Part shown: piece after piece, positions 18,144-24,167 of the stretch
How the letters are laid out: each line of letters begins with the position of its first letter
How positions within the stretch are numbered: position 1 is the first letter of the stretch
NCBI GenBank assembly: GCA_041741035.1
Contig: JBGSKZ010000366.1
Location: forward strand, 1-32,595
From: Treponematales bacterium
GTDB taxonomy: Bacteria; Spirochaetota; Spirochaetia; Treponematales; UBA12059
DNA: 32,595 nucleotides
Reading direction: 5' to 3'
The notes under the pieces: generated by a model
What the model saw: only the letters and a program-made list of their open reading frames with translations
Database searches by the model: none
Told to the model about the DNA's origin: nothing
Translations under genes and position numbers: made by a program

Positions 18144-20081
18144 TCAATCGTTTCTCAGGTTTAAAAGGCCGCCGGCCAGGAGTATGCGCCTCTGGCGCGG
18201 CGATAAGTCCAGCCTGCACTCGACGTCCCTGCCGCCTATGGACAAGCGCGGATTCCCGCCCTCCTCTATAGCGCGGCGAATATCGGCGGCCTCGATAGCC
18301 TCGTCCCGCGCTATGGCCTCGTAGTCGGAAGCCCGGACAAAAATGAGGGGGGCGATGCCGAAATTGACGAGGTTGGCCGCGTGTATGCGCTCGAAAGACT
18401 TGGCGAGCACGGCCTTTACCCCAAGGTACATGGGGCAGATCGCCGCGTGCTCGCGGCTCGAGCCCTGGCCGTAGGACTCGCCGGCCACGACGACGGCGTG
18501 CGCGCCCGCGTCGCGCAAGCTCGCGCAACGCGCGGAGAAACCCGGATCCAGGCCCTCGAAGACGAAGGCTGAATAGGCCGGTATATTGGAACGGTACTTG
18601 AGCCTGGAACCGGCTGGCATGATGTGGTCGGTGCTGATCTTGTCCCCGGCCTTGATGGCTACGCGGCCGAAGAGGCCCTCCGGAAAGGGCAAGGTACGCG
18701 GAGGCTCGCCTATATTGGGACCCCGAATGATAGGCGCGGCGGCGGCGGTATCGGGGAATATGAACATGCGGTCGTCAAGCTCGTAGCGCTCGGGCTCGGG
18801 ATTATCGGGCCGCCCAAATCCGGCCGCTGCCAGGCCGGGCTCGGCAAGGTCCGGAGCGCATCCTTCCAAGGCAGAGAGGGCCGCTATTTCGGGGCTTACC
18901 AGGTAAACCTGGGCATCGGGGGTACCGCTCCTACCCTCAAAATTGCGGTTGGAAGTCCTGAAGGACACGGCCTTGCTGCCCGGCGAAAAGCCGTTGCCTA
19001 TGCAAAAGCCGCAGGCGCTCTCGAGTATGCGTGCGCCCGCGTCAATAATATCGCTAAGCGAGCCGTCCTTGGCCAAGGCCCGCATAACCTGGCGCGAGCC
19101 GGGCGCAACGCCCAGCGACACGCCGGGATGCACGGTCTTGCCGCGCAGGATGGCGGCCACGCTACGCATATCCTTAAGGGACGAGTTGGTACAGGAACCT
19201 ATGCATACCTGATCGACCTTCAAGCCCTTTAGCTCGCGCAGGGTACGGATATTGCCCGGGCTATGGGGGCAGGCGGCAAGCGGCTCAACGCCGCCTAGCT
19301 CAAGCTCGATGACCCGGTCATAGCCGGCGCCCGCTTCGGCCTCCAGGGCCGACCAGTCGTCTTCGCGGCCCTGGGCGGCAAGAAAGGACCTGGTGCGCTC
19401 ATCGGAGGGGAAAACGGAGCTCGTCACCCCCAGCTCGGCGCCCATATTGGCGATGGTTGCCCGCTCAGGCACCGACAGGGTGGCCACGCCGGGTCCGCCG
19501 TATTCGATAATAACGCCCACGTTGCCCTTAGTGCCCAATATGGATAATAGCTTTAGCGCCACGTCCTTGGCGCTAGCCCAGCCGCTCAGCCGGCCCGTCA
19601 GCCGCACGAGAAGCACCGTGGGAGCCGGCAGGAAGAAAGCCCCTCCGCCCATGGCCACCGCGACGTCCAGCCCTCCCGCCCCTATGGCCAACTGCCCCAA
19701 GCCGCCCCCCATGGGCGTGTGGCTGTCGCTGCCGAGCAAGGTGCCGCCCGGCCTGCCGAAGCGTTCCAGATGCAGCTGATGACAAATGCCGTTTCCTGCC
19801 CTTGAGTAAATTACCCCGAAGCGCGCGGCCGCGGATTGCAGGTACGCGTGGTCATCGGCGTTCTCAAAGCCCATTTGCGCGGTATTGTGGTCCACGTACG
19901 ATACGGACAGTTCCGTGGCTACGCGGGCTATACCCATAGACTCGAACTGCAGGTAAGCCATCGTCCCGGTCGCGTCCTGCGTAAGGGTCTGGTCGATGCG
20001 GATGCCCAGTTCGCCCGGAGGCACGATGCTGCCTTCGACCAGATGCGACCTGAGTATTTGGCTGACTATGCCGTACCCCAT
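18144..20081 (-). CDS. Aconitate hydratase (short single-chain type)
   Basis: TQDATG, DHN, GICHQ, GSDSHT, IGSCTN, SACGFCIG, SNRNFEGR, STDHI, YGQGSSREHAA; GAGGAG SD. Confidence 0.93.
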   Translation of the reverse strand: MGYGIVSQILRSHLVEGSIVPPGELGIRIDQTLTQDATGTMAYLQFESMGIARVATELSVSYVDHNTAQMGFENADDHAYLQSAAARFGVIYSRAGNGICHQLHLERFGRPGGTLLGSDSHTPMGGGLGQLAIGAGGLDVAVAMGGGAFFLPAPTVLLVRLTGRLSGWASAKDVALKLLSILGTKGNVGVIIEYGGPGVATLSVPERATIANMGAELGVTSSVFPSDERTRSFLAAQGREDDWSALEAEAGAGYDRVIELELGGVEPLAACPHSPGNIRTLRELKGLKVDQVCIGSCTNSSLKDMRSVAAILRGKTVHPGVSLGVAPGSRQVMRALAKDGSLSDIIDAGARILESACGFCIGNGFSPGSKAVSFRTSNRNFEGRSGTPDAQVYLVSPEIAALSALEGCAPDLAEPGLAAAGFGRPDNPEPERYELDDRMFIFPDTAAAAPIIRGPNIGEPPRTLPFPEGLFGRVAIKAGDKISTDHIMPAGSRLKYRSNIPAYSAFVFEGLDPGFSARCASLRDAGAHAVVVAGESYGQGSSREHAAICPMYLGVKAVLAKSFERIHAANLVNFGIAPLIFVRASDYEAIARDEAIEAADIRRAIEEGGNPRLSIGGRDVECRLDLSPRQRRILLAGGLLNLRND

Positions 20082-20137
20082 GGCAAACTCCTCGGCCCAC
20101 TATATTACTATGTGTAGAATCATGGCTGGGCGGCGGC

Positions 20138-20166
20138 AGTATATAGACCGGAGCGAAAAAGCGCAA
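20138..20166 (-). promoter_or_regulatory. Sigma70 promoter of acn-icd-gltA
   Basis: TTGCGC-17 nt-TATACT. Confidence 0.65.
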
Positions 20167-20307
20167 GGACTGCGTTAAGCCCGCCTCGTGCGCCGCTCCG
20201 GGAAAGGGGAGAAAGGCAGCGGAGGCGGGGCTAGCCCAGGAATATCGCCCATTACAGGTATCGCGGCGGCGTAGGTGGCCCTAGGAAAGAACGCCTTAAA
20301 AATAGCT

Positions 20308-20345
20308 TTCCCTAGCCTCACGGCATGCCCTACGATAATATTATC
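20308..20345 (+). promoter_or_regulatory. Putative promoter of the uORF/RIO kinase unit with overlapping palindrome
   Basis: TTCCCT-17 nt-TACGAT(20331-20336); perfect palindrome GATAATATTATC (20334-20345). Confidence 0.45.
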
Positions 20346-20382
20346 CAAGCGACGCGGCGCCAAGCGCGCGCAAGGAGGCCAT

Positions 20383-20448
20383 ATGCCCGACAGCGCTCAA
20401 TCCACGCTAGAAAAGCCAGGGCGGCTCTCCGCGCTCGTCGCCGCGTAA
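20383..20448 (+). CDS. Putative 21-aa leader peptide MPDSAQSTLEKPGRLSALVAA
   Basis: Full AAGGAGG SD (20372-20378) 4 nt before ATG; TAA at 20446-20448; too short for the ORF track. Confidence 0.5.
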   Translation: MPDSAQSTLEKPGRLSALVAA

Positions 20449-20561
20449 GCGGTACGCCCGCGCCTTCTCGAGATCCGAACCCTACACACGCAAGCCCCAG
20501 CGCCGGAAGGCGCTAGCGCCGCCCGGAGGCTGGCGCCGCCGACAGGTAGAAGGATCTCATC

Positions 20562-21350
20562 TTGGAACACGAACAGGTATTCGAGCATTTCATAGGGCAA
20601 GCCGTGATCACGGCGCCAGGCGTTTTAATAAAGAGCGGCAAAGAGGCATCGGTATACCGCTGCCCGGCCCATGGAGCCTCAGGCTGCGCCGAGGCGGCCA
20701 TTAAGATCTATAAGGACATAGAAAGCCGCAGTTTTAAAGGCGCAAAAGAGTATCTAGACGGGCGCATAGGCCGCACCATCAGGAAGCGCAGGGATATCCT
20801 GCACATGCTTTCATCGAGCGCTTCTATGCAAGCGTACTGGGTAGACTCGGAGCGCTCCGCCATGGAAAGCCTTTACTCCGCGGGCCTACCCGTTCCCAAG
20901 CCCCTTGCCGCCACGGCCAGCGCGTTTGCCATGGAATTCATTAGCGAAGGAAGCGAGGCGGCGCCGCGCCTCATTGAGCTAGACCTGGAAGGCGCGCGGG
21001 GAGAGGTAGTACTGGCCGAGCTCTTAGGCGCTCTGCGCGCCATGCTAGCCCTGGACATAATCCACGGCGACTTATCGCCCTATAACATCCTCGTGCGTGG
21101 GGGCAGGCCCGTCATCATCGACCTTCCCCAGGCGGCTGACGCCAGATACTCAAGCAACGCGTTCGCTCTCCTCGCGCGCGATATCCGCAACGCTCTAGGC
21201 TATTTCCAAAAGCGCGGCATAGGCTTAGGCCATGACCCTGAGCGCGAAGCAGATACGCTCTGGGCCGATTACCGCTCCGGCGCGCTGTACCGCGAGAGGG
21301 ACGCGGCCCAGCTGGCTAAGGAATGGGGGCTCGCGGATTTAGCCTATTAA
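20562..21350 (+). CDS. RIO1-family atypical Ser/Thr kinase/ATPase
   Basis: SGKEASVY, AIKIY, MEFI, HGDLSPYNIL, IIDLPQA; TTG start with AAGGA SD and an in-frame TAG just upstream. Confidence 0.88.
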   Translation: MEHEQVFEHFIGQAVITAPGVLIKSGKEASVYRCPAHGASGCAEAAIKIYKDIESRSFKGAKEYLDGRIGRTIRKRRDILHMLSSSASMQAYWVDSERSAMESLYSAGLPVPKPLAATASAFAMEFISEGSEAAPRLIELDLEGARGEVVLAELLGALRAMLALDIIHGDLSPYNILVRGGRPVIIDLPQAADARYSSNAFALLARDIRNALGYFQKRGIGLGHDPEREADTLWADYRSGALYRERDAAQLAKEWGLADLAY

Positions 21351-21511
21351 AACGGCGAGGGTTTCCCGGCGGCTTCGACGGAAGCCGGCGCGGGAACCTA
21401 GCGCTTGATCGACTCCTGATGCAGAATGCGCAAGCCCGCCTATCAGCGGCGGTAGCTTTCAAAACGGCAGGAGCGCTATTTCGTGGGTGCAGGTAAATTG
21501 CTTAGGAGGAT

Positions 21512-22312
21512 TTACATTGAGAGAGGCAGGCCTTTTGCAGCCAAGAGGAGCAGTAAGGGCAGCGAAGCATCCAACAGGAAGTGCATGGCCATCAGGTATG
21601 GCAGGGTAGTTGGGCGACGCTCCAAAACTAATCCCGTCCAGAGCGCGAAGGGCAAGAATTTAACCGCCAGCCATAGGTTGTAGCGCCAGTCCAGCTGAAA
21701 TGAAAAGAACATGTGCTGGATGGAAAGAGCAGAGCCTACAATGCCGATCACCTGCCAACGGCTCATCCCCGCGGCGCGCAAGCGCGGCGCTACGTAGCCC
21801 CAGTAGATAGGCAATTCAGCCAGCGCCTGGGTGGTGGGCATAAGCAAAAAGAGAGGATAGATCGCCCATAGGGGCAGGGGTTGAAAGAGTAGGCTATTGG
21901 GGTAATTAGCGTCGCCCCACAGCGCCTGCGCGATCAGTGTACCAGGTAGCATGGCAATGATAGCCGAGACGACCCCGGCTAGCAGGAACCAAGCCAGATC
22001 GCCTTTCCATGTGGCGCGGCGCGCGAAATAAATATCGCGCAGACGAACGCCTTCCTTGCGGCCGAAACGAACCATCAAGACGATACAGGCGATGTTCGAT
22101 ATCGTGACAAACCAAAGCCACCAGGCGGATGCGGCATTTATCGGGGATTCTTTCCCAAAAAACGCATACCCTAGCGCCAGCAGGAGCAGCAAGCCAAACG
22201 ACAACGCAGAACGCAAAGCTAGCATCAGCCAAACGCGCAGCGCGGGGATTTTGCCGCTGGACACTATGGGAATCAAAGCTTCGGGGGAATTAGGCAAAAG
22301 ATAAGCGTTCAT
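21512..22312 (-). CDS. Multi-pass membrane protein, distantly CPBP/Abi (CAAX protease)-like
   Basis: Hydrophobic; AELPIYWGY, SIQH and MHFLLD lie where the CPBP motifs would; start moved to MNAYL after GGAGAG SD. Confidence 0.6.
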   Translation of the reverse strand: MNAYLLPNSPEALIPIVSSGKIPALRVWLMLALRSALSFGLLLLLALGYAFFGKESPINAASAWWLWFVTISNIACIVLMVRFGRKEGVRLRDIYFARRATWKGDLAWFLLAGVVSAIIAMLPGTLIAQALWGDANYPNSLLFQPLPLWAIYPLFLLMPTTQALAELPIYWGYVAPRLRAAGMSRWQVIGIVGSALSIQHMFFSFQLDWRYNLWLAVKFLPFALWTGLVLERRPTTLPYLMAMHFLLDASLPLLLLLAAKGLPLSM

Positions 22313-22547
22313 TGTTCTCTCCGTATTTGGTTTATCGGCGCTAGTATACAAGTTAAACCCCAGCCGATACAACAAATTCCCAGGATTAATGGGCAAGCGG
22401 GAAAACATAAGTATGCAACGCGCTCGTATGCTTGAGGGCAACCATATTCTGATTTTTATGGCACACCGCCCGCCGAGGTACCATCCTGCGGTCAACTAGG
22501 CATTCTGAAAATCAGGTTGCGTATATGCAACATGCGCGCTTAGTTCT

Positions 22548-22982: not shown

Positions 22983-24167
22983 ATGAACATGAAGCAGTCC
23001 ATCGCCGGCGGAGGGGTCATGTCGATCATGGGCGACGCTCCGCGCCTTGCGCTCAGGCTCATGCCGGCATTCCTTGCCGCCCTCGCTCTCACGTACTTTT
23101 TCCCCGGGGCCTTCGCCGTTTGGGGAAGGCTCCGCGGCATAGCCTTCGCCGCGGGCATCGAGCTTCTCGGCCTAGGCGCCCTTTTCCAGGCTTCCGCCGC
23201 CTTCGAGCTCGTGCGAGCCTGGAAGAAAAGCCGCCTCGCTACGCGCGGGGCCTACGGCCTCTCGCGCAATCCCATCTTTTCCTGGTGGATATTCTCGATC
23301 CTTCCCTCCTTTGCCTTGCTGCTCGATTCCTGGCTCTTCCTGCCGGTCGCCCTCCTCTTCCGCCTCGTGGCGGGTAAGGCCGCCGAGGCCGAGGAAAGGG
23401 AACTCCACGCGCGCTTCGGCCAGGACTATGACGGCTATCGCATGAGGACGCGGGCCTTCCTTCCCCTGCCGCGGCTCCTGCCGCTTAGCCTCTGGCGCTC
23501 GTTCCGCGACCTCCTCGGACTGTCCGCCTTGGCTTGCCTGGCCCTCGGCCTATATCTCGCCGTGGCGGGGCCGGCGATGCGCGGCTTCGGCGCGCGCTCC
23601 TCCGAAATAGCGGCGCGCATGGCCGGGGACGAGTATGTAGGGAAAGGGGCTGCCGGCTATACGCAGGGCATCGACATAGACGCCTCTCCCGGCACGGTGT
23701 GGAAGTGGCTCGTCCAGATAGGCTACAAGCGGGCGGGCTGGTACAACATCGATCTCGTGAACCGCCTGGCCGATCCTAATTACTTCCACGACGGGAAGTC
23801 TTCGGCCCTCAGGATCATTCCCGAGTTCCAGTACCCCCGCGAAGGTGACAAGATCCATCTCGTGCCGGCCCTTGGCATGACCATAGCAAAGGCGGAAGTT
23901 CCCCGCCTCCTCGTCCTCGTCGCTGAGCCGGACAAGCTGGGCGGGAACAATGTAGCCTGGACCTTCTCGGTCGAGCCGCTGCCGAACGGGCGAAGCCGCC
24001 TCCTTGCGCGCTTTCGCATGCGTATAGGGGATGATTTCGGATCCAGGGTCGCCGCTTGGTTTATGAACGACCTCGCCGGGGCGACCATACAGCAGCCCGC
24101 CATGCTTTGGGGACTTAAGTTGCGAGCCGAGTCGCGGCTGCCTACGATTACGCCTAAGGATGGTTAA
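22983..24167 (+). CDS. Fusion of an ICMT/PEMT-like membrane methyltransferase and an SRPBCC-like domain
   Basis: GGAGG SD; LATRGAYGLSRNPIF and EERELHARFGQDYDGY; then MAGDE, IDIDASPGTVWKWLVQIGYKRAGWY. Confidence 0.7.
   Translation: MNMKQSIAGGGVMSIMGDAPRLALRLMPAFLAALALTYFFPGAFAVWGRLRGIAFAAGIELLGLGALFQASAAFELVRAWKKSRLATRGAYGLSRNPIFSWWIFSILPSFALLLDSWLFLPVALLFRLVAGKAAEAEERELHARFGQDYDGYRMRTRAFLPLPRLLPLSLWRSFRDLLGLSALACLALGLYLAVAGPAMRGFGARSSEIAARMAGDEYVGKGAAGYTQGIDIDASPGTVWKWLVQIGYKRAGWYNIDLVNRLADPNYFHDGKSSALRIIPEFQYPREGDKIHLVPALGMTIAKAEVPRLLVLVAEPDKLGGNNVAWTFSVEPLPNGRSRLLARFRMRIGDDFGSRVAAWFMNDLAGATIQQPAMLWGLKLRAESRLPTITPKDG

Follow-up and report, generated by a model that had tools for sequence, protein, structure and literature searches.

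A hairpin-locked short open reading frame in front of bacterial RIO kinase genes as candidate core of an attenuator-type leader

How a bacterial gene for a RIO-type kinase may be controlled is a question raised by a locus of a Treponematales bacterium. In the stretch of 32,595 nucleotides (nt) of contig JBGSKZ010000366.1 that was analyzed as a whole and is designated “the window” here, a gene for a RIO1-domain kinase with a weak TTG start codon is preceded by a short open reading frame (ORF) with a strong Shine-Dalgarno (SD) sequence. RIO kinases are central in small-subunit maturation of eukaryotes and archaea; for the bacterial RIO kinases, we know of no assigned role and of almost no literature. 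In the literature searched, with subscription journals and supplements outside the scope of this search, the bacterial protein PA4780 received one passing mention, and no description of a leader, an upstream ORF (uORF), or a riboswitch in front of bacterial RIO genes was found.

A sequence-only reading of the locus had proposed a translation-sensing leader of about 220 nt with a disposable peptide that ends in an ssrA-like -LVAA degron; this leader would induce RIO as a putative ribosome quality-control kinase. The SD-led ORF of 21 amino acids (aa), the spacer of 113 nt, the TTG start, and the RIO1-like kinase are all present at the positions given in Table 1. The length of the leader is less certain: it was based on an assumed transcription start site, and a scan of the positions 19900 to 21700 identified no sigma-70-like promoter on the plus strand. 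The best reading of the data, held with a probability of roughly one-half, is that the 21-codon ORF serves as ribosome-binding core in a conserved, attenuator-type RIO leader, and that the peptide is not the product that matters.

Short ORFs in front of RIO genes

The 21-codon ORF encodes MPDSAQSTLEKPGRLSALVAA and is terminated by a TAA at positions 20446 to 20448; 4 nt separate its SD from the ATG. The reading frame is open further upstream up to a GTG at position 20275, which would extend the product to 57 aa, and among the relatives the start with SD and ATG alone recurs. Of the 11 order-level RIO loci for which 300 nt or more of upstream DNA were available, 10 contain a short ORF, as does L011, a locus from an unplaced metagenome-assembled genome (MAG) with a RIO identity of 49%. 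The order-level ORFs comprise 18 to 26 codons, start with ATG 4 to 6 nt behind an (A)AGGAGG or GGGAGG motif, and end 93 to 185 nt before the RIO start. The combination of an SD, 4 to 6 nt, and an ATG recurs in loci L002, L003, L004, L006, L007, L008, L011, L092, L094, and L095. The family-level relative L007 and locus L012 contain the same short ORF and have the same RIO identity to the window of 47%. The upstream DNA of L005, L093, and L009 was too short to be assessed.

A larger set of 88 loci combined the order-level loci with the 80 best out of 593 RIO relatives from the genome collection. A broad scan for strong-SD ORFs of 8 to 40 codons with a start 60 to 400 nt upstream of the RIO match yielded a short ORF in 54 of the 88 loci, compared to 4 of 88 for the reverse complement and, for shuffled sequences, 11.1 of 88. 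When matched criteria were used (strong SD, ATG or GTG, 10 to 28 codons, 60 to 300 nt upstream of RIO), 37 of the 88 RIO loci were positive versus 5 of 423 genes in this genome that are preceded by 300 nt or more of DNA free of ORFs, and the RIO gene itself was among these 5. The short ORFs of the remaining four precede unrelated genes, including a ClpB-like and a GAPDH-like gene, and look like chance occurrences. A DNA search revealed no further copy of the leader in this genome, and contigs of four DNA sequencing runs, two of which may be the source of the window itself, contained no variant of the leader between positions 20250 and 20700.

Carriers of the short ORF included MAGs labelled as Actinomycetota, Chloroflexota (Ktedonobacteria and Dehalococcoidia), Planctomycetota, Myxococcota or “delta,” Armatimonadota, and Pseudomonadales. 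RIO genes with this leader are also found in cultivable bacteria, for instance Thermosporothrix hazakensis or a Dictyobacter species (loci L016, L020, and L029). Across these phyla, an SD with an AUG 4 to 9 nt downstream and an in-frame stop within 10 to 28 codons was kept. An in-frame stop at 10 to 26 codons followed 52 of 82 SD motifs with ATG or GTG, versus 22 of 82 in frame +2, with a median distance to the stop of 20 codons in frame and 43 codons in frame +2. In the Actinomycetota set, the length was exactly 17 codons in 17 of the 22 short ORFs read. Compared to the sister species, the window exhibited identities of 94% in the ORF, 85% in the spacer, and 92% in RIO, and the promoter region was common to both. 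About 100 nt upstream of the SD of the ORF, the homology stops (41% identity over positions 1100 to 1290 of the loci), and the genes further upstream differ. On comparison of the sequences, ORF, spacer, and RIO are thus conserved as one block, so that the leader travels with RIO. The short ORF is no artifact but a conserved component of a regulatory leader that precedes RIO kinase genes of several phyla.

The hairpin around the ORF, the terminators, and the peptide

The SD and the start codon of the short ORF are located in the 5' arm of a predicted hairpin, P1. Its 3' arm is composed of the final nine codons of the ORF, with the stem base next to the stop codon. In 10 of 10 leaders folded, the same one-hairpin topology with the SD in the 5' arm was obtained, with a negative z score in 9 of these 10; the P1 fold was kept in the sister species (L002, z score of −1.95), and the consensus structure calculated by RNAalifold retained P1. 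The mean cost of opening the SD was 6.7 kcal/mol compared to 4.8 kcal/mol in shuffled sequences. The bases adjoining the GGAGG motif vary by lineage and their pairing partners vary along with them, whereas in Planctomycetota the SD and start region is paired with bases just past the stop instead of the 3' end of the ORF.

A covariance model built from six leaders of Actinomycetota was used to search 151 genomes of this class and yielded 25 matches in 24 genomes, one of them a weak match in a genome marked as unpublished. For 18 of the 25 matches, the next ORF encoded a RIO1 domain; in four more no family was assigned, probably because a shadow frame had been picked, and one of these four is a RIO locus already known. 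The weakest three matches, in front of or inside unrelated genes, look like false positives. A narrow Actinomycetota model found the RIO copy alone in 5 genomes. In the 24 Actinomycetota leaders, 89.9% of the cells pair and 19 of 37 pairs display two-sided changes, a result reached by 0 of 500 shuffles and compared to 42% to 61% for slid partners, counts that lean toward structure because the alignment was fitted to the model.

In other phyla, 20 of 50 loci possessed a terminator-like hairpin in the interval from ORF to RIO, compared to 7 in the reverse complement and 1.9 in shuffled sequences. It is a GC hairpin with a T tract, 15 to 45 nt behind the ORF stop, and a second terminator scan agreed in L043 and L057; among the close loci, only L006 possesses such a terminator. 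In 17 of 21 loci with a terminator, the best partner of its 5' arm overlapped the stretch that pairs with the SD region (mean z score of −1.07). In Planctomycetota, the 5' arm of P1 is repeated in the arm and loop of the terminator (GGTCYTCGCG). When the P1 pair GGTCTC/GAGACC is changed to GGTCGCG/CGCGACC in L045, the terminator loop changes in step and reads GGTCCGCG. Promoter-like sites were located 18 to 27 nt before the SD in L011, L043, and L057.

Conservation did not extend to the peptide. The -VAA end of the window peptide resembles that of the ssrA tag, and C-terminal LAA residues constitute a ClpXP degron. The C termini of the 10 counterparts in the closest loci are -RAAA (same-genus L002), -SPRN, -SLLP, -GSAL, -GFRR, -ERNA, -ASSF, -SLLS, -IARA, and -IAIG, so that none of the 10 ends with LAA or VAA and one with AA; the -LVAA tail is absent outside the genus. 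A check of RIO upstream regions for a uORF with a terminal AA, which had been recommended for this locus, thus returned the ORF as conserved and the AA terminus as not. No common motif, including a stalling peptide, was found among the counterpart peptides. Versus the sister species, the ORF contains 0 synonymous and 4 nonsynonymous changes compared to 41 synonymous and 17 nonsynonymous changes in RIO. In 17 distinct Actinomycetota ORFs of 17 codons, the mean entropy at the codon positions 1, 2, and 3 was 0.62, 0.88, and 0.63, which is not the pattern of a coding sequence, and L042 tolerates a 1-nt shift that leads to a different peptide tail. Because the peptide is not conserved and its -LVAA tail is spelled by the GC-rich 3' arm of P1, the ssrA-like tail is a by-product, and neither the degron nor the disposable peptide is supported. 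As judged from these sequences, the SD with the AUG, the position of the stop, and the hairpin between the SD and the 3' end are conserved and the peptide is not. Interpretation of the ORF product as a precursor of a ribosomally synthesized and posttranslationally modified peptide or as a substrate of the kinase was rejected since the peptides share nothing. Two leader peptides contain the residues RLR (L034:2238-2294, …SPRLRS…; L064:2205-2264, …TPRLRF…), which may be a coincidence because they are spelled by the hairpin arm CGCGCCUCCGG. RLR is mentioned as a motif of macrolide-sensing leader peptides (PMC6310831).

The spacer of the window and the weight of the rival readings

The sequence-only reading had placed tandem hairpins into the spacer. 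A structure is indeed predicted there, but the minimum free energy (MFE) fold contains one three-tier hairpin, H4, nested in the long-range helix H3, which covers the SD of RIO. H3 is kept in L002 to L004, with two-sided changes in L003 and L004, and opening of the RIO ribosome-binding site (RBS) was predicted to require 9.7 kcal/mol. A hairpin with a GGAA loop at positions 20499 to 20514 was considered as a mimic of helix 45 of the 16S rRNA and rejected, as the loop is UGAA in the sister species. In the 70 nt behind the stop, the skew of C over G is positive in 11 of 11 close loci (mean of +0.20 compared to −0.06 in RIO); the C-rich, G-poor stretch of the window comprises only about 40 nt, with a skew of 0.44. 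In leaders of the tnaC type, control is Rho dependent, and the base composition behind the stop gives a hint, but only a hint, that this stretch would suit loading of Rho.

These data may be combined into a mechanism, for which we infer that the ORF is translated, the direction of the control, and translation stress as the signal. The SD and the AUG of the short ORF would be locked in P1 by the ORF's own 3' end, so that a ribosome could load only onto the nascent RNA or onto an open P1, and any ribosome on the ORF would block formation of P1. In Actinomycetota, Planctomycetota, Chloroflexota, and others, an alternative pairing could join the 3' arm of P1 to the 5' arm of the terminator, and P1 would act as an anti-antiterminator. 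With a ribosome held at the early codons, the antiterminator would become available and transcription could proceed into RIO; no ribosome, or one that reaches the stop, would result in termination. In the clade of the window, with no terminator, a weak TTG, and an SD of RIO that would be masked by H3, the output would probably be transcriptional polarity or an action of Rho on the C-rich spacer, or co-transcriptional refolding.

Evaluation of this attenuator-type leader needs to consider a number of results that weigh against it. The order-level locus L091, with enough upstream DNA, contains no short ORF, and neither do L097 and L098, the two closest metagenome relatives (53% identity) in a metagenome scan that yielded 13 relatives only. 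No ORF was detected in 34 of the 88 RIO loci in the strict scan; some of these negatives, for instance L013 and L051, contain an ORF outside the scan window or with a longer SD spacing, so that the true share of RIO loci with an ORF should be higher. In the window, the stability of P1 is modest (−44.8 kcal/mol, z score of −1.91, with 8 of 200 shuffles as good), that of the whole leader is not above that of shuffled sequences (z score of −1.06), and the z score for opening of the SD is 0.38. Separate helix tests, which were poorly designed, gave weak or null results (mean of 7.9 versus 6.8 base pairs for the free ungapped helix, 3.6 versus 2.9 for the helix anchored at the first 5-mer match) and were not used. 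The substitution pattern of the ORF and the entropy at its codon positions yield no coding signature, so that translation is argued from the geometry of SD and AUG and the position of the stop only. A terminator-like site on the plus strand was not found in the leader of the window, nor was a mutually exclusive antiterminator alternative in its folding. Opening of the RIO RBS was calculated to require 9.0 to 10.5 kcal/mol for every position of a ribosome on the ORF, and a decrease by at least about 3 kcal/mol with a ribosome occurred in only 3 of 11 close loci, at differing ribosome positions, both in equilibrium folding. The idea of a translation-sensing leader therefore stands on the conserved SD with AUG and stop and on the terminator and antiterminator of the other phyla, but the folding of the window provides no link between ribosome and RBS. 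For the clade of the window, the first half of the device is supported, and the coupling to RIO, for which equilibrium folding gave no support, is putative.

Three other explanations need to be compared with the attenuator-type leader. The leader may be a structured RNA to whose SD-like arm a protein or the 30S subunit binds with no productive translation, as in a feedback by RIO or a small-subunit factor on the helix that resembles an SD:anti-SD pairing or in an RNA thermometer, and the ORF would be incidental. Variation that follows the RNA and not the peptide, with the second codon positions being the most variable and swaps between G-C and G-U common, would agree with this, as would the two-sided changes in P1 and the terminator and the strong pairing of the SD, with 4 to 12 kcal/mol for its opening in the 11 close loci. 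A perfect SD, an AUG 4 to 9 nt behind it, and an in-frame stop at 10 to 28 codons, however, are kept across distant phyla with free variation of the loop sequence; a loop or junction that is conserved and could provide a ligand pocket is absent, and a match to Rfam is missing, which makes this explanation rather unlikely, even if it deserves consideration. The short ORF with its hairpin may also be a small transcription unit of its own or a relic, without effect on RIO in this bacterium, and the RIO promoter would be located within or behind the spacer. P1 and the H3/H4 domain do fold independently of each other in the window, which has neither terminator nor antiterminator. No promoter-like site was present on the plus strand in the region scanned, however, and ORF, spacer, and RIO form a conserved unit between differing flanks, in an arrangement that occurs in 10 of 11 order-level loci, so that a separate unit is improbable.

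A functional micropeptide, including one that is disposed of via its C-terminal -LVAA, would be suggested by the strong SD, the ATG, the complete ORF, and the similarity to the end of the ssrA tag. The peptides of the relatives share no sequence, however, and an AA end is found in the same-genus counterpart only. Together with the absence of synonymous changes, the absence of an excess of changes at the third codon position, and the frame shift in L042, this renders a micropeptide very improbable.

The kinase gene, adjacent elements, and known attenuators

The elements of the locus are listed in Table 1. The 262-aa product of the downstream ORF matched the Pfam domain RIO1 (PF01163) at residues 31 to 220 with an E value of 1.8e-33 and 116.2 bits, compared to a cutoff of 22 bits. 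The best matches in the Protein Data Bank (PDB) were Rio1 chains (E values of 2.4e-19 to 5e-15), followed by weaker ones to Rio3 and Rio2. NF041645, the equivalog of the PA4780-family RIO1-like kinases, was the best match in NCBIfam with 147.3 bits versus a cutoff of 350 bits, which indicates a relative only. Invariant in seven homologues are G26, K27, E28, A29, K48, H168 to N175, D187, P189, and Q190, belonging to the GKEA loop, the Lys in xIKIYK, HGDLSxYN, and IDxPQ, which we take to be nucleotide-binding and catalytic motifs. The TTG start agrees with the aligned N termini of these seven homologues, several of which also start with TTG or GTG, and is preceded by the SD GAAGGA. By its sequence, the gene is a member of the RIO kinase family, of the bacterial RIO type. 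RIO genes occur sporadically in this lineage: searches were positive for 9 of 41 relatives, for 9 of 42 family-level genomes, and for 13 of 401 at the level of the order.

Table 1. Positions of the elements upstream of and including the RIO kinase gene of the window
Element	Position	Strand	Remarks
Inverted repeat CTAGGAAAG / CTTTCCCTAG	20281-20289 / 20306-20315		Upstream of the leader
AT-rich palindrome GATAATATTATC	20334-20344	+	Candidate −10 hexamers GATAAT (20334) and TAATAT (20336), read from the sequence
Hairpin P1	20352-20446	+	5' arm 20352-20388 with SD and start codon; 3' arm 20419-20446; MFE helices 20352-20359:20439-20446, 20364-20371:20431-20438, 20374-20380:20423-20430, 20385-20388:20419-20422
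SD of the short ORF, AAGGAGG	20372-20378	+	
Leader ORF, 21 codons	20383-20448	+	Positional counterparts of 18-26 codons (closest loci) and 10-21 codons (other phyla)
Untranslated spacer, 113 nt	20449-20561	+	C-rich, G-poor 20462-20501; no T-tract terminator
Helix H3	5' strand GAGATCC 20470-20476; 3' strand GGATCTC 20552-20558	+	
Region of the H3 3' strand	20546-20558	+	GTAG 20546-20549 plus GGATCTC 20552-20558; overlaps the RIO SD GAAGGA 20549-20554
Hairpin H4, three-tier	20494-20536	+	Inside the spacer, nested in H3
RIO1-domain kinase gene, TTG start, 262 aa	20562-21350	+	

Some RIO genes of the relatives display peculiarities. In the sister species, an in-frame TGA is present at L002:1888-1890 where the window has GGA as codon 130, which may result from a nonsense mutation of recent origin or from an error in the assembly; the remainder of this gene looks selected, given its excess of synonymous over nonsynonymous changes. 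The RIO genes of L092, L094, L095, and L008 have an apparent start 60 to 180 nt upstream of the aligned core, with acidic N-terminal extensions not found in the window protein. A second strong-SD ORF of 30 to 51 codons was observed in L043 (1746-1859), L045, L049, L057, L067, L028, L034, L013, L015, L023, L025, and L030, from Planctomycetota, Chloroflexota, and “delta.” It begins about 70 to 100 nt before the RIO start and overlaps this start in another frame, and the RIO start has no SD of its own in such loci, for instance in L043. This arrangement suggests coupled or competing initiation at RIO.

A gap of 480 nt separates RIO from an aconitase-family gene on the opposite strand, which ends at 20081. 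Scans of this gap with Rfam and for tRNAs gave no match, a covariance search with Rfam 15 in the positions 19000 to 22500 of the window at E values of up to 1 gave only a chance sX11 match elsewhere, and at the gathering score 20 other RIO loci contained one tRNA and nothing else. The element CTTTCCCTAG of the inverted repeat, which is TTTTCCCTAG in L004, occurs at the matching relative place in L001 to L004, and the similar CTTTCCCTTG precedes the RIO gene without a short ORF in L097 and L098. As read from the sequence, the inverted repeat may be an operator, a promoter element, or an element of a −35 region. The sole sigma-70-like match in the gap is on the minus strand (TTGGCG-17-TATTAT, positions 20363 to 20335) and faces the divergent aconitase-family gene. 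Its −35 site falls within the 5' arm of P1, and the AT-rich palindrome may therefore be common to both divergent units. Next to the RIO gene, an ORF for a hydrophobic protein of 327 aa (21512 to 22495, minus strand) and another for 394 aa (22983 to 24167, plus strand) had no Pfam match at E values of up to 0.001.

Compared to known systems, the RIO leader is similar to the translational attenuators of erm and cat genes, in which a strong-SD leader ORF is followed by a gene with a weak start and an RBS masked by a helix: in the window, the RBS of RIO would be masked by the predicted H3, behind a strong-SD leader ORF and with a weak start. The masking strand of erm is freed by a stalled ribosome, whereas that of the window lies 22 to 28 nt past the stop and its predicted folding does not depend on the position of a ribosome, and the RIO leaders have no conserved stalling peptide. 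In the trp and his attenuators, a leader ORF is combined with 1:2, 2:3, and 3:4 pairings and a terminator. The RIO leaders of other phyla follow this logic with leader ORF and terminator, but they are without runs of regulatory codons, and region 1 is the ribosome-binding site belonging to the leader ORF itself.

Two further leaders are comparable. In the vmlR leader of Bacillus subtilis, a uORF in a 5' anti-antiterminator hairpin is followed by an intrinsic terminator and a hairpin that sequesters the main SD; induction needs translation initiation on the uORF, the sequence of which can vary (PMC9226507). All three types of hairpins are found in the RIO leaders of other phyla, and the first and the last in the window. 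The uORF of vmlR comprises 3 codons, with a single-stranded SD in front of the hairpin, whereas the ORFs of RIO leaders comprise 10 to 26 codons with the SD inside the hairpin; vmlR encodes an ABC-F factor, whereas the RIO leader precedes a kinase gene without a known inducer, and the window is without the terminator. In rli80-hflXr of Listeria monocytogenes, a 14-codon ORF is combined with terminator, antiterminator, and anti-antiterminator alternatives, and ribosome stalling controls a ribosome-related gene (PMC6310831). The short ORF with these three alternatives resembles the RIO leaders; the rli80 peptide contains a conserved RLR stalling motif, whereas the RIO peptides have no common motif and, again, the terminator is missing in the window.

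The assignment of the RIO leader to the ribosome-mediated attenuators, as a variant attached to a poorly understood kinase, is partly supported by these comparisons. It would add a family of attenuators with an unusual feature, the ribosome-binding site that serves the leader ORF itself being the first strand of the switch. A wider view, which is offered tentatively, is that bacterial RIO kinases of many phyla might be governed by one ancient type of leader that reads ribosomes on an SD-locked short ORF, with RIO as a response factor for stalled or defective ribosomes and the window as a case with an output rewired via Rho or masking of the RBS. From such a leader, a switching of RIO by the state of translation is predicted. 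A leader similar to those of vmlR and hflXr in front of RIO genes of the Spirochaetota type, of Actinomycetota, Chloroflexota, Planctomycetota, and others would thus provide a testable handle on this poorly understood kinase.

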